The translations under genes were made by a program, and so were the position numbers. Below the pieces are notes generated by a model that was not told the DNA's origin, did no database searches, and saw only the letters and a list, made by a program, of their open reading frames with translations. A stretch of DNA of 64,000 nt. Origin: Eledone cirrhosa (taxonomy: Eukaryota). The stretch is taken from positions 7,006,001 through 7,070,000 of the forward strand of contig OZ024761.1 of assembly GCA_964016885.1 (NCBI GenBank), read 5' to 3'. Shown one piece after another: positions 20,767 through 54,502 of the stretch (positions within the stretch are counted from its first letter, which is position 1; each line of letters opens with the position of its first letter).

Positions 20767-23700
20767 TTTATGTTTAGTGGTTCACCTCTGGATAGAACTG
20801 GTCATTCTGTTTAGTTAATCATGATGTAATAGTAGGATAAGCACTCTACGTACGCAACTCGTCTAACATTGATGTTGAATCCTGTGGTTGGTATAGGACC
20901 ATAGTTAAATATTGGTTTGATTAAAACAGGGGACCGGACTGGTTATGTTCCTTTAATGTTTTGTTGCAAAAATACTATATTTCAATTGCCTGGTTACGTA
21001 AGATTCTAGTGACATCATCAGGTGTCTATTGCATAATTAGTTGATCAATAAAGGGATTACAGCATACACAAATAGAAAAAATATTTGATTCGGGGATGGC
21101 CTGCAATCTAGGTGTTATTGTTGTCGCAGACGATCCCCAAATGACTAGCTGTTGAATGCAAAGCATCGTAGGTTTGTTGGGCTAGTATAATGGGGACACA
21201 CATCCTGTTTTTATAGATACTACTATGCTGAAGGTAGCTGCACTGACCATAGCGACTGGAGCGGGGGCTTAGTACTGCGTGAAGATACTCTAGCCTAATC
21301 CAGCAAAGTGTAACGGTGAAGAATATCACGTTACTGTAGATAAGGAGCTCGGGTTATAGAATTCTAAAACATCCAACAAGAATATATAAAGCGTTTAAAA
21401 ATATAATGAAAGTTGGGTGTTAAATAAATGAACAAAAAGGAATTATGAAGACTAGATTACATACTAACTACCTTAACCCTTTAGCATTTACATTACTCTA
21501 TATATACTAATGTATTTTCACAGTAAAGGCTTTACCTCACATAATATCTCACATAACATTTACATTATTCTATATATACTATTGTATTTTCACAGTAAAT
21601 GCTTTACCTCACATAATATCTCACATAATATTTACATTACTCTATATATACTATTGTATTTTCACAGTAAAGGCTTTACCTCACATAATATCTCACATAA
21701 CATTTACATTACTCTATATATACTATTATATTTTCACAGTAAAGGCTTTACCTCACATAATATCTCTCATAACATTTACATTACTCTATATATACTAATG
21801 TATTTTCACAGTAAAGGCTTTACCTCACATAATATCTCACATACCATTTACATTACTCTATATATACTATTGTATTTTCACAGTAAAGGCATTACCTCAC
21901 ATAATATCTCTAACATTTACATTACTCTATATATACTAATGTATTTTCACAGTAAAGGCTTTACCTCACATAATATCTCTAACATTTACATTACTCTATA
22001 TATACTAATGTATTTTCACAGTAAAGGCTTTACCTCACATAATATCTCTAACATTTACATTACTCTATATATACTAATGTATTTTCACAGTAAAGGCTTT
22101 ACCTCACATAATATCTCTCATAACATTTACATTACTCTATATATACTAATGTATTTTCACAGTAAAGGCTTTACCTCACATAATATCTCTCATAACATTT
22201 ACATTACTCTATATATACTAATGTATTTTCACAGTAAAGGCATTACCTCACATAATATCGAATCTATGAGATTTTGATATTTATTTTGAGAACAAGTATG
22301 AGCAACTGGTTACGACCGGTTTGAACAGAAAAAGGTGAGAGAATTCTGGCCAGATATAGCTAGTTTAAATGCTAAAGGGTTAAGAAAAAAGTATAAATTA
22401 AAATTTAAAAAGTTTAAATTTAAATTAGAAACCATGTAAATTAGAGGTAAGTTTAGACAGAGTATAGGTATATACACCCACACACATATATGTGCACATA
22501 CACATGTACACACACAGTTGTTGTCTCTGTGGCCTAGCGGTAGGTCCTAGAGATGGTGGTGATCCTGGCCTTGGGTTCAATCTTGATCAAGAGGTGCATG
22601 TAACTTTTAGAAAAAAAAAAAAATGACCCCTTCCTTCCTCAACAATCTCTAGTGCATAACGGACAAATACACAAGTCTTTTATATTAGTAGATATTTTTA
22701 TTTCTTATTTCATTTCGAAATTCACTCACTGCCTAACATTTGATATAATTCTCTTGTACTATACAAGGACATACTACATAATAGGAACCCCAATGAGGGG
22801 TCAGAAAGGAACAAACCTCTGTTTTAGGTCTTTGTTAATTTTTTTTCTCATTTTTCTGTTGTTTTTTTTTCTTTGTTCTTCTTTCCTCCAAATCAATGAT
22901 CCGTCATGTCATTTGGTGATTAGTAACAGATGGCTCTAAACCTGTTGTGTATGACTTGAGTGCTGTCCTCATCCACCGAGGCATCAGTGCTTACAGTGGT
23001 CACTATATTGCCCACATCAAGGACCGGACTAGCCAGGCTTGGTATAAGTTCAATGACGAAGAGACGGAGCGTATGCAAGGACGTAACCTGCACCTGGGTA
23101 ACGAGGAGGAGGTTCATGTGCAAGGTGAGCAACTGTTGACGCAAATATCTCACTACCTTTCACACTTTTTCCTACTTCTTTTTTTCTGCATTTATTATCT
23201 CTCTCCCCCTCTCTCTCTGTGTCTCTCCCCCCCTCTTTCTCCCCCCTCTCTCTCTGCCCCCCCCCCTCTCTCTCTCTTATATACAACATATATATACAAT
23301 ATCAAGGCGGCAAATTGGCAGAGTCGTTGGAGCATCTGGTAGAGTGTTTTATGGCATTTGTTCCGACTCTCGGCTCTCTGAGTTCAAATCCCGCTCAGGT
23401 CAACTTTGCCTTTCATCCTTTCGAGGTCAATAAAAAAGTACCAGTCTAGTACTGGGGTCGATTCTTCCTCTATACCTCTGTCTCATGTCCTCTCTCTCAC
23501 TTTCTATCTTTCTCTGGAAGAAATCTGCTGTAGTGTGGCCTGGGGAGGGATGGGCTCCGCCAGGATTAAAATGCCCAAGAAACTCTGTATCCCAATATGG
23601 TGCCCTCCCTACAACTCCATCAGGAGTTACGGGACCATACCATATATATCAGTATCATCGCTTCCTTGCTTGCCCGGGTTAGACAGGTTATTACATTATG

Positions 23701-26700: not shown

Positions 26701-29700
26701 GTGTTGGTGGTAGTCTATAGGATATGAGGGTGTTGGTGGTGGTCTGTAGGATATCAGGGTGATGGTGGTGGTCTGTTGGATATGAGGGTGTTGGTGGTGG
26801 TCTGTTGGATATCTGACTGTTGGTGGTGGTCTATAGGATATCAGTGTTGGTGGTGCTCTGTAGGATATCAGGGTGTTGGTGGTGGTGGTCTGTAGGATGT
26901 CAGGGTGTTGGTGGTTGTGGTCTGTAGGATATCAGGGTGTTGGTGGTTGTGGTCTGTAGGATATCAGGGTGTTGGTGGTTGTGGTCTGTAGGATATCAGG
27001 GTGTTGATGGTTGTGGTCTGTAGGATATCAGGGTGTTGGTGGTTGTGGTCTATAGGATATCAGGGTGTTGGTGGTGGTGGTGGTCTATAGGATGTCAGGG
27101 TGTTGGTGGTGGTGGTCTGTAGGATATCAGGGTGTTGATGGTTGTGGTCTGTAGGATATCAGGGTGTTGGTGGTTGTGGTCTGTAGGATGTCAGGGTGTT
27201 GGTGGTTGTGGTCTGTAGGATGTCAGGGTGTTGGTGGTTGTGGTCTGTAGGATATCAGGGTGTTGGTGGTTGTGGGATGTAGGATATCAGGGTGTTGGTG
27301 GTTGTGGGATGTAGGATATCAGGGTGTTGGTGGTTGTGGGATGTAGGATATCAGGGTGTTGGTGGTAGTCTGTACGATATCAGGGTGTTGGTGGTGTGTC
27401 TGTAGGATATCAGGGTGTTGGTGGTGGTCTGTACGATATCAGGGTGTTGTTGGTGGTTGGTAGGATATCAGGGTGTTGGTGGTCTGTAGGATATCAGGGT
27501 GTTGTGGTGCTGGTCTGTAGGATATCAGGGTGTTGGTGGTGTGTCTGTAGGATATCAGGGTGTTGTTGGTGGTTGGTAGGATATCAGGGTGTTGGTGGTC
27601 TGTAGGATATCAGGGTGTTGTGGTGCTGGTCTGTAGGATATCAGGGTGTTGGTGGTGTGTCTGTAGGATATCAGGGTGTTAGTGGTGGTTTGTAGGATAT
27701 CAGGCTGTTGGTAGTGGTCTGTAGGATATCAGGGTGTTAGTGGTGGTCTGTAGGATATCAGAGTGTTGGTGGTGGTCTGTACGATATCAGGGTGTTGGAG
27801 CTGTGTTTAAGATATCAGTCTGATCAGGTTGCTGATGGTGTCTGTTGGTCTGATTTTTATGGAACGAGGCTGCAGAATTCATTAAACTATCACATTCGTG
27901 ATGTATTGAATGTCTTAAAAACATGGGAAGGTTTTAAGTTGTAAAAACATGAAGGTTTTATGTTGTATAAACATGGGAAGGTTTTATGTTGTAAAAACAT
28001 GTGAAGGTTTTATGTTGTAAAAACATGTGAAGGTTTTATGTTGTAAAAACATGTGAAGGTTTTATGTTGTATAAACATGGGAAGGTTTTATGTTGTAAAA
28101 ACATAGGAAGGTTTTATTGTTGTAAAAATATGTGATGGTTTTATGTTGTATAAACATGGGAAGGTTTTATTGTTGTAAAAACATGGGAAGGTTTTATGTC
28201 GTATAAACATGGGAAGGTTTTATGTCGTATAAACATGGGAAGGTTTTATTGTTGTAAAAACATGTGAAGGTTTTATGTTGTATAAACATGGGAAGGTTTT
28301 ATGTTGTATAAACATGGGAAGGTTTTATGTCGTAAAAACATGTGAAGGTTTTATGTCGTAAAAACATGTGAAGGTTTTATGTCGTATAAACATGGGAAGG
28401 TTTTAAGTTGTAAAAACATGGGAAGGTTTTAAGTTGTAAAAACATGGGATGGTTTTATGTTGTAAAAACATGGGAAGGTTTTATGTTGTAAAAACATGGG
28501 AAGGTTTTATGTTGTAAAAACATGGGAAGGTTTTATTGTTGTAAAAACATGGGAAGGTTTTATGTTGTAAAAACATGTGAAGGTTTTATGTCGTATAAAC
28601 ATGGGAAGGTTTTATGTTGTAAAAACATGTGAAGGTTTTATGTTGTGAAAAGAATATGAAAAAAAGGCAAATGCAGAAATGTGAGTTGTGAATTTAATGC
28701 ATTTCTGCTAGTCTTTGTCACTGTAAAGTCAGCATGACATGGTGTTGTTATAATTGTTGTTGTTTGTAGTCTTAGGAAAACCAAATGTAACACTTTTTTT
28801 AAGGGGATGGAGGTATTTTCCTATTTAAATATTCCCCTCACCCTACGCACTTTTGTTTTATGATTCTCCCCCTGCCAGCCAATAGCTTGGATTCTGACAA
28901 AGTCAATGAAGATTTGCTACCAGACCATGTACGAGATTATGTTTTGATGGACAACAAACGGTTTGAGGATTGGATCCAGGAGCTGCTAAATATGAGGGTG
29001 AGACCAAATTATTATTATTATCATCACTAGCAGAAAAACCACCCTTCGAATGGTTTTCTGCTAGCTTGTGTAGTGTGCATATTGATATTATATGCAAATA
29101 TATATTCATGTAGATATGATACATCAAATAAAACCCTAATTAACAATATGTACACAAATTGAAGAGAGACTGTGTTACACTGTCTTCTGTAATCAGTAAA
29201 GTAATCCATGATATATTTTAAAAAGACAATATTATATATAAACTGCATTACGGTGAAATGTAATGAAAACGAAAAAGGAGAAAATTAGTGACAGAAATAT
29301 AAACGTTATATAACGATGTAAATATATGAATGTTTATATAAGCGATGTGATATAGCATGTTATATCAACCGAAAGTATTGACATTTGAAAATTTTAAAAG
29401 AAGTGAATCTTAAAATAAGCAATCATTATATATAAGAATATTTATGTTTAACCCTTTAGTGTTCAAACCGCCCCAAACTGGCCGCAATTATTTCCCCTTC
29501 ATTTGTTCAAACCACCCGAAACTGGCCGATAACATCCACACTAAAATATCGTTCTAAAAATAAACAATACTGTCATCAAAATCTCGTCAATTCGAGATTA
29601 CTGCGAGATTAGGCCCTTACCGCGAAAATTAACACTTAATATAGTAAAACAACTTAAAACAACACAACAACACGTGTATTTTTAACATTGAAAGTAGAAC

Positions 29701-32700
29701 AGATTTTTTTGTGTATCAACATGGCTTGTGAAAGTAGCGATACCGATTTTGAAGGTTTTACACATGATGACATTCAGAATGAACAAGAAACAAAAGATAA
29801 TATTAGTGATTTATCTTCAAATGAATCAGATGTTTATATTTCTGAAATATCATCTGACGATGATTGTTGTTTTGAAAGTGAAAACGGAGTTCTCCAGGAC
29901 GCCATTGAAAATATTACAGCAACGTGGTTGAAAAATACCACACTAATATATGTTCCCGATTTTATTCAAAATACTGGTCCACAACACACATTAGCTCCCG
30001 ATGCTAAAGCACTGGAGGATTATTTCTTTTTGTTTTTACCACAAACTTTCTTCGAAGTTGTGGCAGAAGAGATTAGTCGATATGCCCAACAACAGATTTC
30101 AAATCAAGGAAAACCTGATCTGTTTGGCAACCGATAGATGCTGCAGAAATGCAAGCATTTTTTACCATAAATATTATGTTCGGTATAAAACAATTTCCAA
30201 GACTGGAATTACTGGAGCACTGATATAAGGTTTAGTGATCCTTATATATCAAGTATTATGCCGAAAACAACGTATTTAAAATTAAACCAGTATTTGCACC
30301 TGGTTGATACTTCAAATGCCCCTATTAGTTAATTTCACCTGCCCATAAAAGTCAAATTTAACTAAAAAAATCAGGTAAAATTATATAATTGTAAGTTATT
30401 GATATTTAAACATCTACTGACAAAATTTCAAGCCTGCACATAGAAAATTAAGAAAATTACAAACAAATAAAATTGATAACCCTCTTGAGTACGATTAACT
30501 GAAAATAATTGTTTCTACTTTTGGCACAAGACCAGCAATTATCCCAGTGTATTACTGGTACTTTATTTTATCGACCCCGTAAGGATGAAAGGCAAAGCTA
30601 ACCTCGGCGGGATTTGAACTCAGATCATAAAGGACCATAACTCTATGCTGCAATGCATGTCATCCGACCCTCTACCGATTCTGCCAATAATGTGAACAGA
30701 TAATGACATTTGATAAATTAATGTGAATGCTAAAGGGTTAATCAACAGCCACGAAATTTAGTAGGTAAATTATATTATATTCATTCATTATTTATTTAAA
30801 GTAAAGGGCGGTAGATTGGCAGTATCGGTAGAGAGTCGGACGCCATGCTTTCCAGCATAGTTACGTCCCTTTACGATCTGAGTTCAAATCCCGCCGAGGT
30901 TGACTTAGCCTTTCATCCTTACGAGGTCGATAAAATAAAGTACCAGGAATGCACTGGGTAATTGCTGGCCTTGTGCCTAAAGTAGAAACAATTATTTATT
31001 CAAAGTAAACGGTGACAGTCACTTGATCACCTATAGATCAGGGGAATACACCAGCCAGATAGGTTTTATCCTTACTAGAAAATGAGACAGATTGTCTGTT
31101 ATGAACACTAAGACCCTCACGAAGAACGCACCTCCCAACATAGCTTAATAGTTAGTTACCTCATAGTCGGGGCCAGATGAACTCGTCGGCAGAGGAATAC
31201 CTCGAGGAGAAGAATATGGAAGTTAAACGACCCCACAGCCAGTAACAAATTTAAAAGCATATTACTTGATGCTTTTAACAGTAAGGAAGAGCAATTAGAG
31301 ACGTACAATATAGAGGAACAGTGGGAATGCCTGAAAGTTAACCCGCTGAAGGCAACAGATGAAATCTGTGGCTGGAGCAGACCTATTGGCAGGAGGAAAG
31401 TAACTTGGTGGTGGAACAGTAAGGTGGAGGAGTCAATTAAGGCCAAAAAGCAGGCTTGGAAAGTATGGTGAGATGGGGGGGGGGGAAGTAGAGAAGACTA
31501 TCAAGTGGCCAGGAGAGAAGCTAGGAGACAAGTGTACCTTGCAAGAAGAGGGAAGCAGAGGATAGAAAGTTCAAGCATGTTCTACAATGTGAGGATCAAA
31601 AGTGAGGTGTTCAGGATTGTGAGGCAATGTGTCAAGGAGCACTGTGATATTGTCAGGGAGACATGTGTCCATAATGACGATGGTATACTTGCCCTCACTG
31701 ATACTGATAAGGTCGCTTGGAAGTGTCACTACGAGGGACTACTGAATGTGGAGAATGAATGGAATAAAGATAGTCTGCTCACATTGATCCAATAGAGGGA
31801 CCAGCGGTGCAAGTTGATGGTAGTGTAATAAGTAAGGCAATCAAAGATATGAAGACAGGCAAGGCAGCTGGGCCTTCAGGGATAGTTGCTGAAATGTTGA
31901 AGGTATCTGGAATGGTGGGACATACTATGGTCACCCGGATAGTAAACCAAGTCATACAGAATGGGGTCATACCAAATGACTGGCGTAGCAGCATCATCGT
32001 CAACTGTTACAAAGGCAAAGGAGTTGTTATAGATAGGGGAAACTATAGAGGCATTAAGTTAGTTGACCAGGTAATGAAGGTCACAGAAAGAGTTATTACT
32101 TAACTGACTAGAGACTGAATTGATTTAGATGAAATGCAGTTTGGGTTTGTGCCAGGTAAAAGTACCACGGATGCTCTTTTCCTTGTACGGCAATTACAGA
32201 AGTACCTAGCTAACAGTAAATCCCTCTACTTAGCTTTTGTTGACTTGGAGAAAGTCTTTGACAGAGTCCCACGCATCTTAATCTGGTGGGCTCTTAGAAA
32301 ACTAGGAGTGGAAGAATGGCTTGTGGGAGCTATACAAGCCATGTATAGAGGAACAGTCAGCAAGGTTAGAAGTAACAATGAATATAGTGAAGAATTTAGC
32401 GTAAAAGTAGGGGTTCACCAAGGCTCCATCCTTAGCCCCCTCCTGTTTATTATTTCCTACAAGCTATAACAAGGGTTTAAGACCAGCTGTCCATGGGAAC
32501 TTCTATATGCAGATGATCTAACTCTCATAGCTGAATCTATGGCTGAACTAGAGAAGAAATTCCAAATATGGAAGCATGGCCTAGAATCAAAAGGCCTTAG
32601 AGTTTAGACTAAAGTTCTAGTATGTAGAAAGGATAGGGTGCAGGTGCCCTCTGGGAGATGGCCATACTCAGTGTGTAGGAAAGGAGTAGGTAGAAATACC

Positions 32701-33762
32701 ATTCTATATCCCAAATGCAAACTATGGGTACATGAAATATGTAGTGGGATCACAGGTAAGCTATCTAAGAACATAGATTTTATATGTGGCCGATGCTCAG
32801 GTGCAGTAAGTAGCAAGGACCCACTGGATGCTATCTCCTTCAACTGCCCAGATGGTTCTATAGAAATATTAGACACTTTCCGTTACCTGGGTGACAAAAT
32901 CAGCAGTGGCGGTGGGTGTTCTGAAAGTACAGTAGCCAGAGTTAGAATGGGATGGAAAAAGTTCAGAGAGCTTATACTGCTGTTGGCCACAAGCGGTTTT
33001 TCTTTAAAAATGAAAGGCAGATTGTATGATGCTTGCATACGAACAGCAATGTTACATGGCAGTGAGACATGGGCATTGTGTGCAGAGGACCTGTGCAGAC
33101 TGGAAAGGAACAAAGGAACAAAGCTTGCATGTGCACAAACGGCTAAGCATAAACGAATTGAGAGAGAGACTAAGCATAAGAGGTATCAAATGTTGTGTTC
33201 TGGAGAGGAGATTGTGTTGGTATGGACATGTGATGCATATGAAGGATCACACCTGTATAAAAAAGTGCAATCAAAATTGATGGAAGTTACAGAGTGGGGA
33301 GACCAAGAAAAACCTGGGACGAGGTGATAAAAACTGACCTTGCTCACCTAGACCTCTCTAAGACAATGTCACTGGATCGAGATCTTTGGCGCCCTGCATT
33401 TATACAGAAGACCTGCCTTCCCTTGCATACAAACTTAAATCTACAGTCAGTAGGCACCTCTTAACCCAATACACACCCACCCCACACACTCTATTCCAGC
33501 CTCTTATTTCCGTCCACTGTAAAGTGGTCATGTTGGTGACACAACAATAAGCACCCAGTTCACACTGTAAAGTGGTCGTGTAGGAGACACGGTAAAAAGG
33601 CTCTCAGTCCACACTGTAAATGTGGTTGGTGTTGTCCAGCCGTAGAAAACCTGCCAGATACAGTCCTATACAAGTGAGACACGGTCACCCAATCAATCTT
33701 GCCTCAAGTAGGACAATTCCCATCCAGCCCATGCTAGCGTGGAAGATGGACGTTAAATGATG

Positions 33763-33797
<35 letters not shown>

Positions 33798-36606
33798 TCA
33801 TCATTTTACGTCCCAGGACCTGTCCCACCCTTGCTTGCAAGGGTGAGACAGGTCCTATTCAGCACAGCATCTCTCCATTCGTCGCAGTCCTTTGTCATCT
33901 CCTTCGTGAGCTTCAGCGATCTGAGGTCTGCTCTCACCACCTCCGCCCATGTTTTTCGTGGTCTACCTCTACTGCGTCTTCCTTCTACTGGGATTTCTTG
34001 GCACTTCTTTACCCAGCCGTCATTCTCCATGCCCATCACATGTCCATACCATCTCAGCCTTCTCTCCTGCACACTGCAGCCTATCCCTCTTATACACAGT
34101 TTCTCTCTCAACTCGTCTATGCTTGGTCGTTTATGCACATTGGCACTGCACATCCAACAGAGCATACTTGCTTCATTTCTCTCCAGCTGTTGCATATCTT
34201 CCACAGTTGCTGCCCATGTCTCACTACCATGCAGCATCGCACATCTCACACAGGCATCATATGACCGGCCTTTCGTTCGTAGGGAGAAATCCTTCTTTGT
34301 TAACAGAGGAAGCAGCTCCCTCTTCCAACCTGTCCTTATTCTAGATACTATGGCCTCGGAGCACACTCCCCCCTTGCTAACATGATCACCTAGGTATCAG
34401 AAGCTATCAACCACCTCTATAGATTCTACCTGCATTTGAAAAATATGTCTATCACTGCAACTTCTACTATCAAATTTCCCTGAACATCTACTGCATATGT
34501 AGTTTTCCCTACCTGTTAGTTTACCTGCTATCCCACTACATCCCTTGTGTACATTCTATAGAATTTATGCCAACTCCTTTTCTACATATCGAACATGGCT
34601 ATTTCCCTGATGGAATCAGAGTTTTGTCTTCTTTCCTACTTTAGAAGTATTAAATAAAGATATAGATGTGCGTGTGGATGTTAATGTTTGTATTAGTATA
34701 GTGTGTATTTTGTATCGATAGAAGTTACCAGTAAAGCAGTTAAAGGCAATGTCGTGGTAAATAGTATCATAAGTCTTTATGATGTTTTTACATAATTTAT
34801 TTACAGACCGATTACAAAGGTTTAGCTGGCATGCCAAAAGAAATGAATAAACAAATGAAGAGTTTGAGAAGGTGCGGGGAACTGGCTGAGGTGTTAGCCA
34901 AGTCTGTAGTGATGTTTTGTTACATATTGTTTATGCTTGAGGAACGAATTCAAGAGGTGTTTACCTTAACGGTGTCGAGCTGCATGAGAAAGAGTTTATC
35001 GAAAAGAAGCGGGAATTTCTCCATTTGGGCGGAAGTTGAGATACATTTCCCTACGCTGGTAGCGATTGGCTGAATTCAGCCAAACAACGCACGGAAAAGG
35101 TATCAATGCACCAAAGGAAAATAGCTTGCTACACTACTTATCAACACTTTTGTCTTAGCTAGATTCACTCTCAGTCCTCTTGCTTCCAACTGCTGTTTCC
35201 ACAGCCAGAATTTCTTCTCTAGCTCCTCTACTGATTCTGATATAAGAACCAGATCGTTAGCATAGAGAAGTTCCCATGGGCAGCCAGTCTTAAACTCCTC
35301 TGTTATGGCTTGGAGGACTATAATGAACATGAGCGGGCTGAGGACCGAACCCTGATGTACTCCTACTTGTATCTGGAATTGCTCACTAAACTCCATTCCT
35401 ACTCTCACTTTACTGACAGCACCTCTGTACATAGCTTGCACTGTCCTCAGAAAACATTCCTCTACACCTAGTTTCCTTAGGGACCACATGATGACAGATT
35501 GGGGTACTCTATCAAAGGCTTTCTCTAGGTCAACAAAAGCTAAATATAGTGGCTTATCCTTCTAAGAACCTCTCTTGTAGTTGTCTCACTAAGAAGAGAG
35601 CATCTGTTGTACTTTTCCCAGGCACAAAACCAAACTGCATTTCATCTAATTTGACCCTTTCTCTAATCAGTTGTGCTAATATCCTTTCTGCCACTTTCAT
35701 AACCTGATCTATCAGTTTTATGATCCTATAATTGCTCCTCTCCAGAGCATCCCCTTTACCTTTGTAGCAATTTATGAGAATACTGCTGCACCAGTCTTTG
35801 GGTATGACACCATATATAGCCTGATTGACTATGCGTGTAACCATTTTAGTGCCTACGTCCCCTGATGCCTTCAGCATCTCAGCAACTATCCCTGATGGTC
35901 CAGCAGCCTTACCACTTTTCATTTCCTTAATTACCTCTTGGACCCTATAGTCATCAATTTCAATAGCGGGTCCCTCTGTCGGGTCTCCTGGGGGCAGTTT
36001 CTCTCTCTCCCATTTATTTTCGACATTCATCAGTCTCTCATAATGACATTTCCAGGCCTCCTCTTTCTGATCATTTGTGACACTAAGTACACCAGCATCA
36101 TTCCGGACACATTTGTCTCCAACAACATCCTGATTTACACTGACACACTGCCTTGCAATGTGGAACACCGCACGTCTCTGATCTTCCCGTCGCAGAACAT
36201 TGGCAACCCTCCTACTCTCAGCCTCCCTGTGTGCTAAGTACACCTGACGTCTAGCTTCTCTCTTAGTGGCTGTGTATCGGTCCCTACTCTCACCCTTTTT
36301 CCAAGCCTTCCATGCTAGTCTTTTGTCTCTAATGGCCCTATCTACTGTGCTGTTCCACCACCAGGTCACCCTCTGTCTGGTCGGAGCTCTGCTCCAGCCA
36401 CAAGTTTCTTCAGTAGCCTGCAGTAAGTTGTCACTTAAGAAATTCCGGTTATCATATATGTCGTACGATATGAGTGTGTGTAAATGTTTCATTGATTCTT
36501 AAACAATGTCCTCTTTCTCTTTCAGGACCAAAGTGTTGAGAGTGGACGAGAGAGACAGCAGGAGATTAAATATGTATATTATTCACTAGTGCCTAAAGGG
36601 AGTAAG

Positions 36607-36692
<86 letters not shown>

Positions 36693-38795
36693 ACGTTTAA
36701 CGTCCGTGTTCCACGCTTGCATGGGTTTGGACGGGGGTAGTCCCACTTGAGGCAAGAGTGATTGTCTTGCTCGCATAGGACTGTCTGGCAGGTTTTCTAC
36801 AGTTGGATGCCCTTCCTAACACCAACCACATTTACAGTGTGGGTCTGGGAGGTTTTTACCGTGTTGCCTACACGGCCACATTACAGCGTGGACTGTGTGT
36901 TTTTTTGTCGTGACACCTACACGATCTCATTTGTTTCGGCCTGGATGGTGTGGCACGAATATATATGTATATGTATAAATATATGTATGTATGTATGTAT
37001 GTGTGTATATAGATGGAAAAGACAGCGGATTAGCTGTCGAAACGACTGGAGCTCGGCCGTCGGAGTCCTGACTCTTTTCCTATTACCCTAAGTATCGAGT
37101 ACTCTGGTGCGTTATGGTCCACTTGGTTCTTTACCGCACTTTCTTTGTTATATATATATATATATAAAAACTAAGATCCTCCCTTGCTCAGTATGTAGGA
37201 AAGGTGTAGGTAGGAATTCCATCCTCTGCCCCAAATGCAAACTATGGGTACACAAGAGATGTAGTGGGATCTCAGGAAGCTTCATTAACCCTTTAATCTT
37301 CAAACCGGCCAAAACTGGCCAGAATTCTCTACCTCTTTCTGTTGAAACTGGCTGTAACTGGTCACTCATACTGATGTTAAGGTATTGTTCTCAAAATAAA
37401 TACTTTCAAAATCTCATAGATTCGATATTATGTGAGATAATTATGCGAGATAAAGCCTTTACCATGAAAATATAATAGTATATATAATGTGAATGCTAAA
37501 GGGTTAAGAATGTAGGCTTTACATGTAGCAGCTGCACCAGGACAGTAAGCAGCAAACGACCACAGGAAACAAGCCCCACCAAACTCTGGGAGGGCTCTGT
37601 AGAAACAGTAGACAGCTTCTGCTACCTGGGTGACCAAATTAGCAGCGGAGCTGGGTGTTCTGAAAGTACAGTAACCAGGATAAGAACTGGATGGAAGAAG
37701 TTCAAGGAGCTACTGCCACTGCTAGCTGCAAAAGGCTTTTCCCTCAAAATGAAAGGCAGACTGTATGATGCATGCATACGAACGGCAATGTTACATGGAA
37801 GTGAGACCTGGGCGCTGTCTGTAGAAGACTTGCATAGATTAGAAAGAAATAAAGCTTGCATGTTCTGATGGATGTGAGATAGTAATATACGCGAAAGGCA
37901 AAGCATAAATGAATTGAGAGAGAGACAGCATAAGAGGAATCAAATGCTGTGTGCAGGAGAGGAGGTTGCATTGGTATGGACATGTGATGTGTATGAAGGA
38001 TGACAGCTGCATAAAAAGGTGCAGAGCACTAAAAGTTGATGGAAGCCGTGGAGTGGGGAGATCCAAGAAGACCTGGGATGAGGTGATAAAAGCTGACCTT
38101 GCACAATTGCACCTCTCAAAGGCGATGACACAGGACCGAGACCTCTGGCGTCACACAGTAATACAGAAGACCCGACTTCCCACGGGTACAAGCCGAAGCT
38201 GAAGCATATTGATAGTCTACCCCCAACACCTCCCACTGCAAAGTGGTCGTGTAGGCGTCACAGTAAAAAGAAGCACCCAGTACTCACTGTAAATGAGGTT
38301 GGCATTAGGAAAGGCATCCAGCTGTAGAAATCAAGCGAAAGTCAGTTCCATATGAACAAGACATGGTCACCTGACCTGGCATTGCCCACAACAGGACAAC
38401 CTGTCTAACCCTTGCTAGCGTGGAAGAACGGGCGTAAAATGGTGATGATGATATGTATCATGATCATCATCATCATTTAACGTCTATCTTCCACGCTAGC
38501 ATGGGTTAGACGGGAATTGTCCTACTTGAGGCAAGATTAGGCTGCTCAGCCGTTAATATGCATAAGGAAAGTATATACTTTCAGACGTTCAATCATCTGG
38601 CAGGAAGGTATACGTTGCTGACGATAGCTAATAAGCTTGAAACTAGTACATCGTTCCTTTGTCAGTGTTGAACAAAAGAGCAACGATGGTTGCTGGACAC
38701 TGTACGGCTTAATACGGGATGTTTGTTTACAAACACACCGAGCATTATAATAAATGTTCGGTGAATCCATACATACATATATATATGTGTGCATG

Positions 38796-38837
<42 letters not shown>

Positions 38838-39578
38838 CTACTGTACGTCTGTATACATATATGTATGTACGTATACATACTTATATTTAAGTAACATCCT
38901 TACTAAGAGTGAGAAATGAAATTTTGTTTCATTTTTTCCGTTTATATATATATATAACAATGATAAACAAGACCAAGATGGTTAATTATATTACATTTTA
39001 ATAAATTAACACGTTTCTTCCAAATCTTAATTATATGAGCAAAAGATTGGATTCATCAGGGTTAATAAAATGAAAACAAAGAAATTATTAACTAGCAAAA
39101 TGATATCAATATCAGATTTAGCCTAACAGCTAATGTTTACCTTATACAACATCAAATTTGAATAACACGACACCAAGTTTGAATATGGCACTCAAACAAA
39201 CAAAATTTACTACAAAATTGAGTTATGCACTCAAGCAAAACAGGTTATAATATTTTCTTTTAAAAAATATATATAAAGTGGTTGTGTATCTGTCCGTAAC
39301 AAAGTAGAGATGACTGAAGAAGAAAGGGGTGATTACATCGACTGAAACTGACAGACTTAGAAAAAATAATTATTATATACATACACATCTATGTGATGAC
39401 TGAGGAAGGAGGTGAGAAACTATAGAAGTCCAGAGTTCTAAGATTCATCACAGCTGTGTGTTTGTATCACCTGTGTGAGTGAACGCAAAGGTACCAACTA
39501 ACCAACAAACAAACAGATATTACAATTTGCCGTGACAACATGGGGCCACCTAGTTTATATATATTTAGTACAAAGAAA

Positions 39579-39614
<36 letters not shown>

Positions 39615-40713
39615 CATCATCATCGTTTAACGTCCATTTTCCATGCTAGCATGGGTCTGGATGGGAATTGTCCCACTTGAAGCAAGATTGGTTGTCTTGC
39701 TCAGGACTGTCTGGCGGGTTTTCTACGGCTGGATGCCCTTCCTAACACCAACCACGTTTACAGTGTGGACTGGGAGGTTTTACCGTGTTACCTACACGGC
39801 CACATTACAGCGTGGACTGCGTGTTTTTTTGTCGTGACACCTACACAATCTCATTTGTTTCGGCCTGGATGTTGTGGTACCAACATAGCTTCACATCGAA
39901 AGGGGTGGTGTGGATGGCGATGGGGGTGTATTTTGGTTAAGAGGTGCCTACTGACTAGGTTTCGCTTTGTACTTAGGCAAGGTGGGTCTTCTGTATTACT
40001 ACGTAGCGCCAAAGATCTCGGTCCAGTGACATTGTCTTGGAGAGGTGTAAGTGTGTGAGGTCGGATTTTATCAAGTCATACCAGGTTATATATATGTATA
40101 TATATATATATGTATATGGTGGCTGCCAACTCGTTTTCGAGTACGGCCACTACTTTATATCCATGTAGGAGAACCCTACCGATGCGCTGTACGAGTGACT
40201 TTTTAGTCCAGCCAGCGACTTGAAAACTCTGGTACAAATTATGTGACAATTATTGACACATAGTGCTGGGCCCATGGTACCATGTGACAAGTGCAGAGAG
40301 ATCTCCAGATATAAAGCAATGCCTGTGCCGTGAAGCTTTTATAGTGAGCAAAGGCACTGCACAAAGCCAGTCCCACTCTCTTAACCAAGATGATATTTAC
40401 CAAAAAGAAGAACAAGTCAACATCATTGGATACCATCAGGGTTGCAGGTGTTATATCAGAGTTTTCCTTCTAGAATTCTGCCTTGACAAAGGCTAAGGGG
40501 TCATCTCTCCCAGTGATTTTGGATGGCCATTGACTCTTAAGAGCTCCTTTGCCCTTTGACAGGTTTTGTTTTTAGTCCTGCAGGATGTCCAAAGTCACCC
40601 TCCTCACCAAGAAACCTTGGTGGGGTTGACAGTTTAGTTGCCAACGACCCGACCATGATACAGGTTGTACTGGGATACATGTTACCAGTAGCACCAACTG
40701 GTGACCTGATATA

Positions 40714-40760
<47 letters not shown>

Positions 40761-43570
40761 GGGTGTTACAGGTAAATTGGAACCATTTAAATATCATCAC
40801 CATTTAGTGTCCATTTTCTATGCTTGATGGGTTAGATGGGTCATCCCCTTTGGGAGAGAAGTCTGGCCAGTGTTGGCCACATTATACCTTGCTCTGTTGT
40901 GAACTAACCCATGCTCGCGTGGAAAATAGACGTTAAACAACAATGATGATGATGTGTGTGCATATATATATGCGACGGCTAGAGAGAAATGAAGCAAGTA
41001 TGCTCCGATGGTTGTGCAATGTCAGTGTGCATGAACGACCAAGCATGGATGTGTTGAAAAAGAAACTGGGGATAAGTTGTGGTGTGCAGGAGAGAAGGCT
41101 GAGATGGTATGGACATGTGATACCAACTAGAGATGACTGAGGGATGTGTATATATGTATGTATGTATGTGTGTGCTTGTGTAAATGTATGTATTTGTGTG
41201 TTTGTGTAAATGTTTGTGTGAGTGTGTGTTTGTGTAAATGTGTTTGTGTGTGTTTTTGTAAATGTATGTATGTGTGTGTTTGTGTTTGCATGTTTATATT
41301 TATATACTCATACATATAAATGTATGCATATGCGTATACACACACACATACATATATACAAACCTGTATATATATTTCTAGTGTATATATATTTCTAATG
41401 TATATATATTTCTAGTGTATATATATTTCTAATGTATATATATTTCTAGTGTATATATATTTCTAGTGTATATATACTTCTAGTGTATATATATTTCTTT
41501 CTAGTGTATATATATTTCTTTCTAATGTATATATATTTCTAGTGTATATATACTTCTAGTGTATATATATTTCTAGTGTATATATATTTCTAGTGTATAT
41601 ATATTTCTTTCTAATGTATATATATTTCTAGAGAATATATATTTCTAATGTATATATATTTCTAATGTATATATATTTCTAATGTATATATATTTCTAGA
41701 GAATATATATTTCTAGTGTATATATTTCTAATGTATATATAATTCTAATGTATATATATTTCTAGAGAATATATATTTCTAGTGTATATATTTATAATGT
41801 ATATATATTTCTAGTGTATATATATTTCTAATGTATATATCTTTCTAGAGAATATATATTTCTAGTATATATTTCTAATGTATATATTTCTAGTGTATAT
41901 ATATTTCTAGTGTATATATAATTCTAATGTATATATATTTCTAGTGTATATATATTTCTAGTGTATATATATTTCTAGAGAATATATATTTCTAATGTAT
42001 ATATATTTCTAATGTATATATATTTCTAGTGTATATATATTTCTAGTGTATATATATTTCTAGAGAATATATATTTCTAATGTATATATATTTCTAATGT
42101 ATATATATTTCTAATGTATATATATTTCTAGAGAACATATATTTCTAATGTATATATTTCTAATGTATATATATTTCTAATGTATATATATTTCTAGTGT
42201 ATATATATATTTCTAGTGTATATATATTTCTAATGTATATATCTTTCTAGAGAATATATATTTCTAATGTATATATCTTTCTAGAGAATATATATTTCTA
42301 GTGTATATATTTCTAATGTATATATTTCTAGTGTATATATATTTCTAATGTATATATATTTCTAATGTATATATATTTCTAATGTATATATCTTTCTAGA
42401 GAATATATATTTCTAGTGTATATATAATTCTAATGTATATATATTTCTAGTGTATATATATTTCTAATGTATATATATTTCTAGTGTATATATATAATTT
42501 TAATGTATATATATTTCTAGTGTATATATATTTCTAGAGAACATATATTTCTAATGTATATATATTTCTAATGTATATATATTTCTAATGTATATATTTC
42601 TAGTGTATATATATTTCTAATGTATATATATTTCTAATGTATATATATTTCTAGTGTATATATATATTTCTAGTGTATATATATTTCTAATGTATATATC
42701 TTTCTAGAGAATATATATTTCTAATGTATATATCTTTCTAGAGAATATATATTTCTAGTGTATATATTTCTAATGTATATATTTCTAGTGTATATATATT
42801 TCTAATGTATATATATTTCTAATGTATATAGCTTTCTAGAGAATATATATTTCTAGTGTATATATTTCTAATGTATATATTTCTAGTGTATATATATTTC
42901 TAATGTATATATATTTTTAATGTATATATTTCTAATGTATATATCTTTCTAGAGAATATATATTTCTAGTGTATATATTTCTAGTGTATATATATTTCTA
43001 ATGTATATATATTTCTAGTGTATATATATTTCTAGTGTATATATTTCTAGTGTATATATAATTCTAATGTATATATATTTCTAATGTATATATATTTCTA
43101 GTGTATATATATTTCTAGTGTATATATATTTCTAATGTATATATATTTCTAATGTATATATATTTCTAATGTATATATATTTCTAATGTATATATATTTC
43201 TAATGTATATATATTTCTAATGTATATATATATTGCTAATGTATATATCTTTCTAGTGTATATATATTTCTACAAATCTTCTAATCTTTCTCTCTCACAA
43301 CAGATGTTCTAAATACATTTGAATGGCTCAGCCATGACTGGCTTTCTCGCTGGTTGACTGACCCTATCAAAGCACCGTCCATTAACAACCAAACTTTCCT
43401 CTGTTGTCACAGCAGGTATTTCATTTTTTACCACATTATTTCTATCTAGCCCCTCCTCTCTCTCTCGCTCTCTCTCTTTCTCTCTCTCTCTCTCTCTTTC
43501 TTTCTGTCTCTCTCTCTCTCTCTTTCTTTCTGTCTCTCTCTGTCTGTCTGTCTGTCTGTCTCTGTCTGTC

Positions 43571-43749: not shown

Positions 43750-46700
43750 GTCTATCTCTCTCTCTTTCTGTCTTTCTCTGTCTACTCTCTCTCTCTACTC
43801 TCCCCTTCTCCCCCTCTCTCCCAGTTTATATATATCTATGTATGTATATCTCTCTGTATGTGTGTGTATTTAACACCTTTCTATCTCACCCTATCTTTAT
43901 TTATGCATGTGTACGTAGATATATTGGACATACACGCCTGGGCGGCGTGTCACAGCTTGAGATTGGTGTGGGGGGTCAGACCTTCGTTAAGACCTGAAGA
44001 TCCGTCTCTTCGTTGCTGTAGTGGAGTATGTTCTGCTGTACGGGTCTGAGACTTGGACACTGACCAAGAAACTCACTCAGATGGTGGATGGGTGCTACAC
44101 GAGAGTGCTGAGGATGGCTCTGAACATTAATCAGTATACACTGAGGATGAAGAACTCAGAGCTGTATGGGAGCCTCCCAAAAGTCAGCTCAGAAGTGACA
44201 CAGAGGAGACTGAGGTTGGCTGGACATGCTCACCGACATCCAGAGTTGACACTGCACTCAGTGCTCCTATGGCATCCCCACAGTGTTAGAAACTTTACCA
44301 CACACAGGGATATGGTGCACAATAGTATATATAAAGTAATGTAAATGTTGTGAGATATTATGTGAGGTAAAGCCTTTACTGTGAAAATACAATAGTACAT
44401 ATAGAGTAATGTAAATGTTATGTGAGGTAAAGCCTTTACTGTGAAAATACAATAGTATATATAGAGTAATGTAAATATTGTGAGATAAAGCCTTTACTGT
44501 GAAAATACAATAGTACATATAGAGTAATGTAAATGTTATGTGAGGTAAAGCCTTTACTGTGAAAATACAATAGTACATATAGAGTAATGTAAATATTATG
44601 AGATAAAGCCTTTACTGTGAAAATACAATAGTACATATAGAGTAATGTAAATGTTATGTGAGGTAAAGCCTTTACTGTGAAAATACAATAGTATATATAG
44701 AGTAATGTAAATGTTATGTGAGGTAAAGCCTTTACTGTGAAAATACAATAGTATATATAGAGTAATGTAAATGTTATGCGAGGTAAAGCCTTTACTGTGA
44801 AAATACAATAGTACATATAGAGTAATGTAAATGTTATGTGAGGTAAAGCCTTTACTGTGAAAATACAATAGTACATATAGAGTAATGTAAATGTTATGTG
44901 AGGTAAAGCCTTTACTGTGAAAATACAATAGTACATATAGAGTAATGTAAATGTTATGTGAGGTAAAGCCTTTACTGTGAAAATACAATAGTATATATAG
45001 AGTAATGTAAATATTGTGAGATAAAGCCTTTACTGTGAAAATACAATAGTACATATAGAGTAATGTAAATGTTATGTGAGGTAAAGCCTTTACTGTGAAA
45101 ATACAATAGTACATATAGAGTAATGTAAATATTATGAGATAAAGCCTTTACTGTGAAAATACAATAGTACATATAGAGTAATGTAAATGTTATGTGAGGT
45201 AAAGCCTTTACTGTGAAAATACAATAGTATATATAGAGTAATGTAAATGTTATGTGAGGTAAAGCCTTTACTGTGAAAATACAATAGTATATATAGAGTA
45301 ATGTAAATGTTATGCGAGGTAAAGCCTTTACTGTGAAAATACAATAGTACATATAGAGTAATGTAAATGTTATGTGAGGTAAAGCCTTTACTGTGAAAAT
45401 ACAATAGTACATATAGAGTAATGTAAATGTTATGTGAGGTAAAGCCTTTACTGTGAAAATACAATAGTACATATAGAGTAATGTAAATACTAAATAATTA
45501 ATAGGCCAAGGTTACTGCTATCTGATTTTTTATTTAAAAACAATTTTTTATTGTGGCTCCATAGGACTGAGATGTACGACTAATTCTAAATCTTACTCCA
45601 TACGTCATCCTTTTTCCTTTCACATATATACAAGATGAGTTATAAATAAGCGGACAGTTCAACATTTTATTCCAAATGATAATCTATCTATCTATTACTA
45701 AAACTCTGTGATAGCTTGCTTGAAATGTCATACAGCCAAAAGGGTGCATAATGGGGAAAATACTTTGAAAGGAAGTTGACCCTGAAATGGGAATACAGAT
45801 GGAATAAGACCAGTTTTTCATAAATCGGAGCACGGGTTCCCGACATATGGGGTTTTTCTAGGTAACTTCGTAAACCGAGAGAGAGTAAGAGATAGTGGTT
45901 GTGAGAGAGTAGATTGAAAGAGACATAGAGAGAGGGTGATGAGACAGAGAAGGAGAATGGAAGAGAGAGAGAGAGCTGGTGGTGGTGTTGTTGTGTGTGT
46001 ATATATATATATATGTGTATGTCTATGACCAGTGTATATAGATCAGACACCCACATATATATATACATATATATATACACACACACACATACACATATAT
46101 GTATACAAACACATACATTTATATATATACACACACACACACATATATATATATATGTATACACACGCACTCACATACATACACACACGTATATATATGG
46201 GCCTTCCAGTTTCATTTCACACTATATACATGTCTGTATATTTTAATTATTTAAAAATTATTTTTAAGTGAACAGGATTTTTTTAGAAATATTTTGAAGT
46301 GAACGTCACCCAACGGTCATGGGTGGTTTACTATTATTCTCATTCAGTATGGAACTATAAATATATCAAACAAAAGTAGTTAAAAATATAATTAGTGTTT
46401 GAAAAACTGACCCCCGTTCTCCAATATATTTTGAAGTGGATGTTCAAAAGGTTATCTGTGAACATTGAAATACATCGACTGCTCGGTTACTTATGACTCA
46501 CTCTGTATTTCGATGATTTATCTCCCCTTACCTCGCTCTCTTTCACCCTCTTTCTATCTCACCCGCTCTCTTTCACTCTCTTTCTATCTCACCCTCTCTC
46601 TCTCTCTCCTGCAGGTTAAACCCTAATATGGTATCCAAATTAAAGTTTGTCAACAGTGAAGGTGTGAGTAAAATTAACTTAATTGCTTTGTTGTTATTGT

Positions 46701-54286: not shown

Positions 54287-54502
54287 ATATTAACAAAATA
54301 GATATTCTTGTGATCAAGTATATTTTATTATACATATTTCAGAGGTACTGAGTTAAGTTCAACAGTACGTCCTCATCAGATAAAATAAGATGATGCATGA
54401 CATACCCTGACATAGTAGATGGTTAAGATTCAGTCATGGTAGTGCTTCCAATCTATTGTAAAACTCATTCTTTGATTTATTCATTGAACCTTGTTTATCT
54501 TT

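Follow-up and report, generated by a model that had tools for sequence, protein, structure and literature searches.

A 5'-truncated unit of a putative octopus non-LTR retrozyme family, carrying a type I hammerhead motif, lies in a USP48 intron

The 64,000-nucleotide stretch of Eledone cirrhosa DNA that we analysed, hereafter the window, carries a type I hammerhead motif on its plus strand inside an intron of USP48. We consider it probable that this copy is a 5'-truncated unit of a high-copy, non-coding repeat of about 430 bp, a likely non-LTR retrozyme mobilised by enzymes from (TA)n-targeting Penelope-like elements (PLEs), and that the lone copy, as its predicted structure suggests, cleaves slowly if at all. 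On its sequence features the repeat appears to be a new octopus family of an already known kind of element, the non-LTR retrozymes.

The motif consists of ACGTTG (38612-38617), CTGACGA (38618-38624), GAAA (38639-38642), CTAG (38643-38646), TA (38647-38648) and CATCGT (38649-38654), and every segment lies where the original prediction had placed it. Helix I (38612-38617 with 38649-38654) flanks a core formed by 38618-38624 and 38639-38642, and helix II (38625-38638) has four pairs and an AAUA loop above a U.U mismatch at its base, the T.T of 38625/38638, which is found family-wide. Cleavage is predicted after the GUA triplet, 3' of 38648. Positions 38642-38648 hold the helix III palindrome ACTAGT and this site, and on the dimer model of PMC4209133 the palindrome would form two pairs and a 2-nt loop in a monomer and six pairs when two copies pair. 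With a core of CUGANGA, GAAA and UH, an open helix I and closed helices II and III, the sequence is a true type I hammerhead, and the palindrome noted earlier in helix III (CTAG at 15.2-16.2/loop 3) is confirmed; the standard 10.1-11.1 pair, G-C in most type I hammerheads, is here U.U. While the T.T of helix II had been noted, a second U.U mismatch in helix I, at 38615/38651, had been missed. The fold prediction and pair counts place around the motif an extended stem closing helix I (38587-38673), in which a 3-nt bulge (38609-38611) lies six pairs from the core, and this is where the loop 1-loop 2 tertiary contacts of hammerheads are located. Downstream, AGCAACG is indeed found at 38679-38685, but the proposal that it sequesters the 5' arm did not hold, the predicted pairing being 0.00 with that arm and 0.91-0.99 with its own partner in a local AGCAAC/GTTGCT hairpin (38679-38694); in a sister subfamily a shifted hairpin is predicted at the matching place. 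The strong hairpin described near the TA tract is present in the predicted fold as an 11-bp stem at 38736-38763, and in a divergent copy at locus L026 two of its pairs are changed on both sides.

Using Octopus bimaculoides USP48 as a tblastn query we found twelve plus-strand exons in the window at 65-100% identity, and the exon near 22920-23078 matches USP48 proteins, the best match being 100% over 50 residues to the O. bimaculoides protein. The exons on either side of the motif lie at 36526-36601, with a GT donor at 36602, and at 43304-43415, with an AG acceptor directly before it; the host intron is 36602-43303, its donor 2.0 kb upstream and its acceptor 4.7 kb downstream of the motif, and the assignment of the motif to the sense strand of a USP48 intron was borne out. 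Atlas gave a UCH lead at 0.90; Pfam searches with three true exons and ten guessed frames brought nothing useful.

Within the window alone, a loose hammerhead pattern is not found beyond chance, with one match against 0.38 expected and 31 of 100 shuffles reaching one. Rfam returned no hammerhead family at E up to 1 for the window or up to 10 for a 271-nt query; its loose-threshold matches were TA-repeat microRNA artefacts and one weak snoRNA hit only. Our case for the reality of the hammerhead is based on the family. The 31-nt core has 10,697 exact matches genome-wide versus none for a reversed control, and the 43-mer has 16,083 within two mismatches, again with a control count of 0; this genome-wide copy search, called for by the original prediction, found the core conserved among the copies. 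A 231-nt query yielded 1,182 candidates, the best 40 of which are 98-99% identical over 231 nt. A looser pattern for U.U hammerheads has 35,481 genome matches, and among the first 100 listed we counted by eye 79 members of the retrozyme family and 21 of a PLE-linked family. The exact 43-mer of the window copy is a minority form, present at 31 places on contig C1, where the first 100 listed core matches already fall in 42 of 443 Mb. The retrozyme unit is also present in contigs from four organisms.

The repeat unit is non-coding, about 420-470 bp long, and contains one type I hammerhead; its head-to-tail period is 433-435 bp at locus L030 (GC 0.36), 422-424 bp at L105 and 466 bp at L106, which belongs to the sister subfamily. 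With unit positions counted from the cleavage site, the window copy is a 5'-truncated solo copy of the roughly 433-bp unit at about 38531-38945, comprising positions ~317-433 and then 1-279, that is, a monomer slightly shorter than one unit with a single hammerhead. The limits of 38546-38770 given previously were therefore too short, as the TA-rich tract (38769-38893), whose length varies among copies, is internal to the unit. At the 3' junction (38940-38956) the copy stops at the family's commonest 3' end, unit position ~279, and a short (AT)n target follows. Two consecutive complete hammerheads, the least that Li et al. require of an 'active' retrozyme, are absent from the window copy; tandems occur at 19 of 58 family loci. 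Pairing in the predicted circle reaches 67-72%, with z between -6.9 and -8.7 relative to 40 rough shuffles in each case, figures that the TA tract inflates. Besides these regular arrays, L080:1445-1579 is a chimera of a main-subfamily 5' arm and a sister-subfamily 3' arm that switches within the invariant hammerhead; dissimilar monomers ligated at the cleavage site, or a template switch, could have produced it.

The mismatch at the base of helix II had been taken as a possible sign of decay. It is instead the family norm: 38625 is T in 10,697 copies and another base in 117, and the two helix II Ts are kept in 174 and 175 of 176 stored copies, which were collected with a pattern that allowed up to 5 substitutions. 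The only commonly variable positions in this set are N7 (C/T) and one loop-2 base, and N7 and loop 2 are positions where hammerheads tolerate change. Two PLE families of the octopus genome likewise have U.U at the helix II base, as does axolotl HHR_Amex2, whose monomer reached 22% cleavage in 1 h and whose dimer cleaved more (PMC7229834). Judging from the aligned copies, the weakness specific to the window copy is in helix I, not helix II. Pair 4 of this helix, 38615/38651, is U.U in the window copy, and in 14 of 16 aligned subfamily representatives (related rows, hand-picked to span the subfamilies) it is G.U, U.G or A-U. Covariation in the alignment is modest: pairing holds in 98.1% of cells, a single pair has both of its bases changed, and 14 of 500 shuffles reach the score. 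In a secondary-structure calculation that leaves out tertiary contacts, the two helix I pairs next to the core have predicted probabilities of 0.02-0.03 in the window copy and 0.45-0.59 in the main subfamily; the cost of the hammerhead-armed fold comes to 4.2 and 2.4 kcal/mol, respectively. Free co-folding of two 57-nt copies gave an extended duplex and no dimeric hammerhead.

As to class, canonical metazoan type I hammerheads have a helix I of 6 bp, a helix II of 4 bp and a helix III of 1-2 bp with a 2-4-nt palindromic loop, and need a second copy; minimal PLE hammerheads have a helix II of 7-8 bp, a helix I of 4-5 bp and an extra base before G10.1-C11.1 (both PMC4209133). We assign the octopus motif to the canonical metazoan form because its helices I, II and III are 6, 4 and 2 bp long and its 2-nt loop is palindromic. 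The label of a minimal Penelope hammerhead attached to it earlier had to be dropped, since neither its helix sizes nor its U.U at 10.1-11.1 agree with that form, with which it shares the palindromic CTAG at 15.2-16.2/loop 3, a region that lends itself to dimers. Other likenesses to the minimal hammerheads of PLE pseudo-LTRs (Cervera and de la Pena 2014, PMC4209133) are the prevalence of solo copies and the opposite-strand pairs a few hundred bases apart; unlike them, the octopus unit is not attached to an ORF at the loci seen. The closest counterparts are the metazoan non-LTR retrozymes, above all axolotl Rtz_353/HHR_Amex2 and those of mussel (Cervera and de la Pena 2020, PMC7229834). Common to both are a short, non-coding tandem unit within 150-450 bp (433 in the octopus, 466 in the sister subfamily), low GC (36% in the octopus unit), one type I hammerhead per unit, a highly paired predicted circle and PLEs within the same genome, as well as the U.U at the helix II base of HHR_Amex2. 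The helix III of HHR_Amex2, by contrast, has two pairs and a tetraloop where the octopus has a 2-nt palindromic loop, and the octopus unit is set apart by its TA-rich tract, by 3' ends fixed at two internal positions on (TA)n targets and by the lack of a clear target-site duplication. In every testable sequence feature the octopus unit seems to fit the definition of a non-LTR retrozyme. As among the retrozymes of Li, Clavereau and Pollet (bioRxiv 10.64898/2026.07.22.740005), dispersed monomers occur alongside dimers and multimers; that study samples no mollusc, and many of its families match known pseudo-LTRs. Giant squid has 235 Rfam hammerhead-1 hits (PMC6962438). The literature that we found on hammerheads in octopus or cephalopods and on octopus Penelope does not report the family, which supplements of earlier papers or Repbase/Dfam may list; in the main text of PMC13282606 the words 'ribozyme', 'hammerhead' and 'retrozyme' do not appear.

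The way in which the copies begin and end carries a record of their insertion. We mapped ends at 58 loci after dropping two overlapping ones, the loci having been retrieved by their hammerhead region, which biases the possible end positions. Of 91 3' ends, 67 fall at unit positions 219-228 or 276-281, and TA-rich DNA follows 51 of these 67 as compared with 2 of the 24 other 3' ends; the 93 5' ends are spread along the unit, and an inverted partner is present at 29 of the 58 loci. In PLEs, Craig et al. 2021 (PMC8557442) describe a (TA)n bias together with truncated 5' ends, partial tandem copies and inversion of 5' copies, and among the families with a (TA)n preference they list the octopus families Hydra-1_Obim and Naiad_Obim/Ovul. 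Because 3' ends are fixed and mostly followed by TA-rich DNA, 5' ends are scattered and inverted partners are common, we conclude that the unit has probably been copied by a Penelope-like enzyme; the suggested link of the hammerhead to Penelope-like biology stands. All four traits are shared with the Hydra, Naiad and Neptune PLEs of that study, but those encode a reverse transcriptase and a GIY-YIG endonuclease, whereas the octopus unit encodes nothing and has no detectable DNA in common with those sampled. At L121 and L175 an inverted pair of copies lies between flanks that are 97-99% identical to each other over 200 bp, so that host DNA has been duplicated in inverted form there.

The ends gave no direct genomic footprint of cleavage. 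At the cleavage site a pattern for 5' ends matched 20 times, 14 of the matches being true ends, which is no enrichment over the 13 matches and 11 true ends at a control site 10 nt upstream; a few of the 'true ends' at either site are internal deletions. Six 5' ends at unit position 1 that might have been such a footprint were explained by a 28-nt filter. Neither fixed 3' end coincides with the cleavage site. No target-site duplication longer than 4 bp is present at the window copy, and none was clear-cut at five other loci inspected by eye. From these patterns we infer internal priming at UAU on a template that was either circular or a multimer left uncut, with the enzyme continuing across the junction. 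A mechanism of the following kind would account for the family. Tandem retrozyme arrays would be transcribed, neighbouring hammerheads would pair through ACUAGU and cleave after GUA, and a host ligase would close the monomers into circles. A PLE endonuclease would then nick (TA)n, and the nick would act as primer at either of the unit's two internal UAU sites. By passing the cleavage junction, the reverse transcriptase would produce tandems of more than one unit; one such insertion, cut short, would have entered the USP48 intron in the sense direction. The mobilisation of animal retrozymes is still a hypothesis in PMC7229834 and in bioRxiv 2026.07.22.740005, and in Xenopus 8 of 9 predicted dimers did not cleave (bioRxiv 2026.07.22.740005), which cautions against assuming activity.

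Candidate helpers are present, as the genome has PLE ORFs carrying both a reverse transcriptase and GIY-YIG. Among them is a young, abundant Hydra-like family with a 713-aa frame, the motifs RWR, SNKT, CxCX5C, CxxC and CxH, and ends in TA tracts, and another ORF has a CX4CxxC linker and a CCHH-like motif, by which we would call it Neptune-like. The unit and the ends of the sampled PLE families show no similarity at the DNA level, unlike in Xenopus, where many retrozymes match PLE ends (bioRxiv 2026.07.22.740005). Hydra-like copies lie near 4 of 20 fetched loci with TA tracts in between, which we read as shared targeting and not as linkage. Both kinds of PLE carry hammerhead-like motifs of their own. 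The Hydra-like 3' end (L125, L124-L153) has one with the core CAGAAGA in place of CUGANGA, U.U at the helix II base and a 4-bp helix III; it is identical in 32 of 41 copies in the top rows and differs from the hammerhead listed for Hydra-1_Obim. If true, a core in which U4 had become fixed as A would be unusual. The Neptune-like PLE has a compact hammerhead 3' of its ORF (L060, L065, L066, L071) with U.U at the helix II base, a GAAA loop and palindromic GTAC, and it accounts for 21 of the first 100 listed loose matches.

An alternative is that the unit is the pseudo-LTR of an autonomous PLE, the window copy then being a 3' remnant left by the usual 5' truncation. Such an element would be expected to show fixed 3' ends, truncated 5' ends, inversions and (TA)n targets; most PLE hammerheads are solo remnants (PMC4209133), and retrozymes have been derived from pseudo-LTRs (bioRxiv 2026.07.22.740005). 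We nevertheless regard this explanation as unlikely. Copies longer than one unit run into another unit and not into an ORF; the 65 free 5' flanks, taken from 109 of the more than 16,000 loci, have no sequence in common that leads into an ORF, so that at these 109 loci the unit is non-coding and without ORF linkage, as a retrozyme should be. In the opposite direction, 30 of 150 scored GIY-YIG loci with 13 longer stretches, and 30 of 86 Hydra-like loci, contained only independent insertions of the unit and no autonomous parent; at the sampled loci the unit does not flank an RT-GIY-YIG ORF. Where a PLE ORF lies near a copy, it has ends and hammerhead-like motifs of its own, and at L021 a PLE ORF is interrupted by an antisense copy. 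To the idea that the unit is a DNA-level satellite or MITE-like repeat in which the likeness to a hammerhead is merely carried along we give hardly any credence. It would suit the tandem arrays, the TA-rich content and the failure of Rfam to score the motif, but it conflicts with strand-polar ends that are fixed at 3' and variable at 5', with the variation falling on N7 and loop 2, and with changes that keep the pairing of helix I and of the hairpin downstream.

A further proposal is that the ribozyme in the intron works and reduces USP48 output, or sets its timing, by cleaving the pre-mRNA ahead of splicing of the exon at 43304. Its sense orientation, complete core and 4.7 kb of downstream intron speak for this, as does a fast engineered hammerhead in a zebrafish intron that reduces mRNA up to 20-fold (PMC11856399). 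Yet this is a solo copy with a dimer-type helix III, two U.U mismatches and core-adjacent pairs predicted to misfold, and its 98-99% likeness to dispersed copies gives no sign of locus-specific retention. There is also a possible allele without the element: contigs of three runs from one sample, at depth 9-10, join 38513 to 38943, a joint for which the lengths on either side are not shown and whose right flank is an old repeat, and which may reflect a presence/absence polymorphism. We find the proposal very hard to credit. The original prediction that the copy could nick the intron is possible in principle, but the modelled fold makes it a poor candidate, and fast cleavage of USP48 pre-mRNA is unlikely because of the extra U.U in helix I and the missing tandem partner. 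To judge from its sequence, the lone, weakened copy probably does little to USP48 and sits there as an inert intronic monomer. Its location is ordinary, since about 42-44% of Xenopus retrozyme copies overlap introns (bioRxiv 10.64898/2026.07.22.740005).

The single intronic copy being ordinary, the family is the more useful object. A young family that keeps a clear insertion record beside young long-frame PLEs of the same genome makes the ideas of a helper PLE and a circular template testable, and its near-identical natural variants (G.U, U.G, A-U or U.U in helix I; monomer versus tandem) form a series on how tens of thousands of ribozymes are tolerated. A broader scenario, which we offer tentatively and consider doubtful as a whole, is that this octopus family of 16,000 to perhaps 28,000 hammerheads was recently active, its circles being copied from two fixed internal priming sites by a TA-targeting PLE enzyme of a helper without sequence kinship; that three unrelated hammerhead families converged on a U.U-weakened helix II, which would make cleavage dimer-dependent and thousands of sense intronic copies harmless; and that a few tandem intronic arrays would cut host pre-mRNAs and shed circles out of host transcription.

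Several other features of the window were observed. The hammerhead-like motif at 54,325-54,390, on the minus strand and antisense to USP48, has a long helix II and sits in an insert of about 240 bp between (TA)n tracts; the motif in the USP48 intron had been called unrelated to this one near 54,379, and only low-complexity TA matches were found between both regions. A third hammerhead-like motif, apparently decayed and also with a long helix II, occupies 39,000-39,065 of the minus strand in the old repeat directly after the element, and a relative at L190 is a better-paired version of it. The USP48 introns at 31,150-38,460 are filled by decayed LINE reverse-transcriptase fragments, at least four in number and lying in either orientation, probably of RTE type; a 75-bp minus-strand end adjoins the retrozyme 5' junction with microhomology. 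A 159-aa acidic frame at 29658-30137, without a Pfam hit, presumably resembles the start of a piggyBac-type transposase. Finally, a 60-72-bp minisatellite occurs in three introns, at 6982-8649, 21485-22259 and 44358-45488, the third being reversed.
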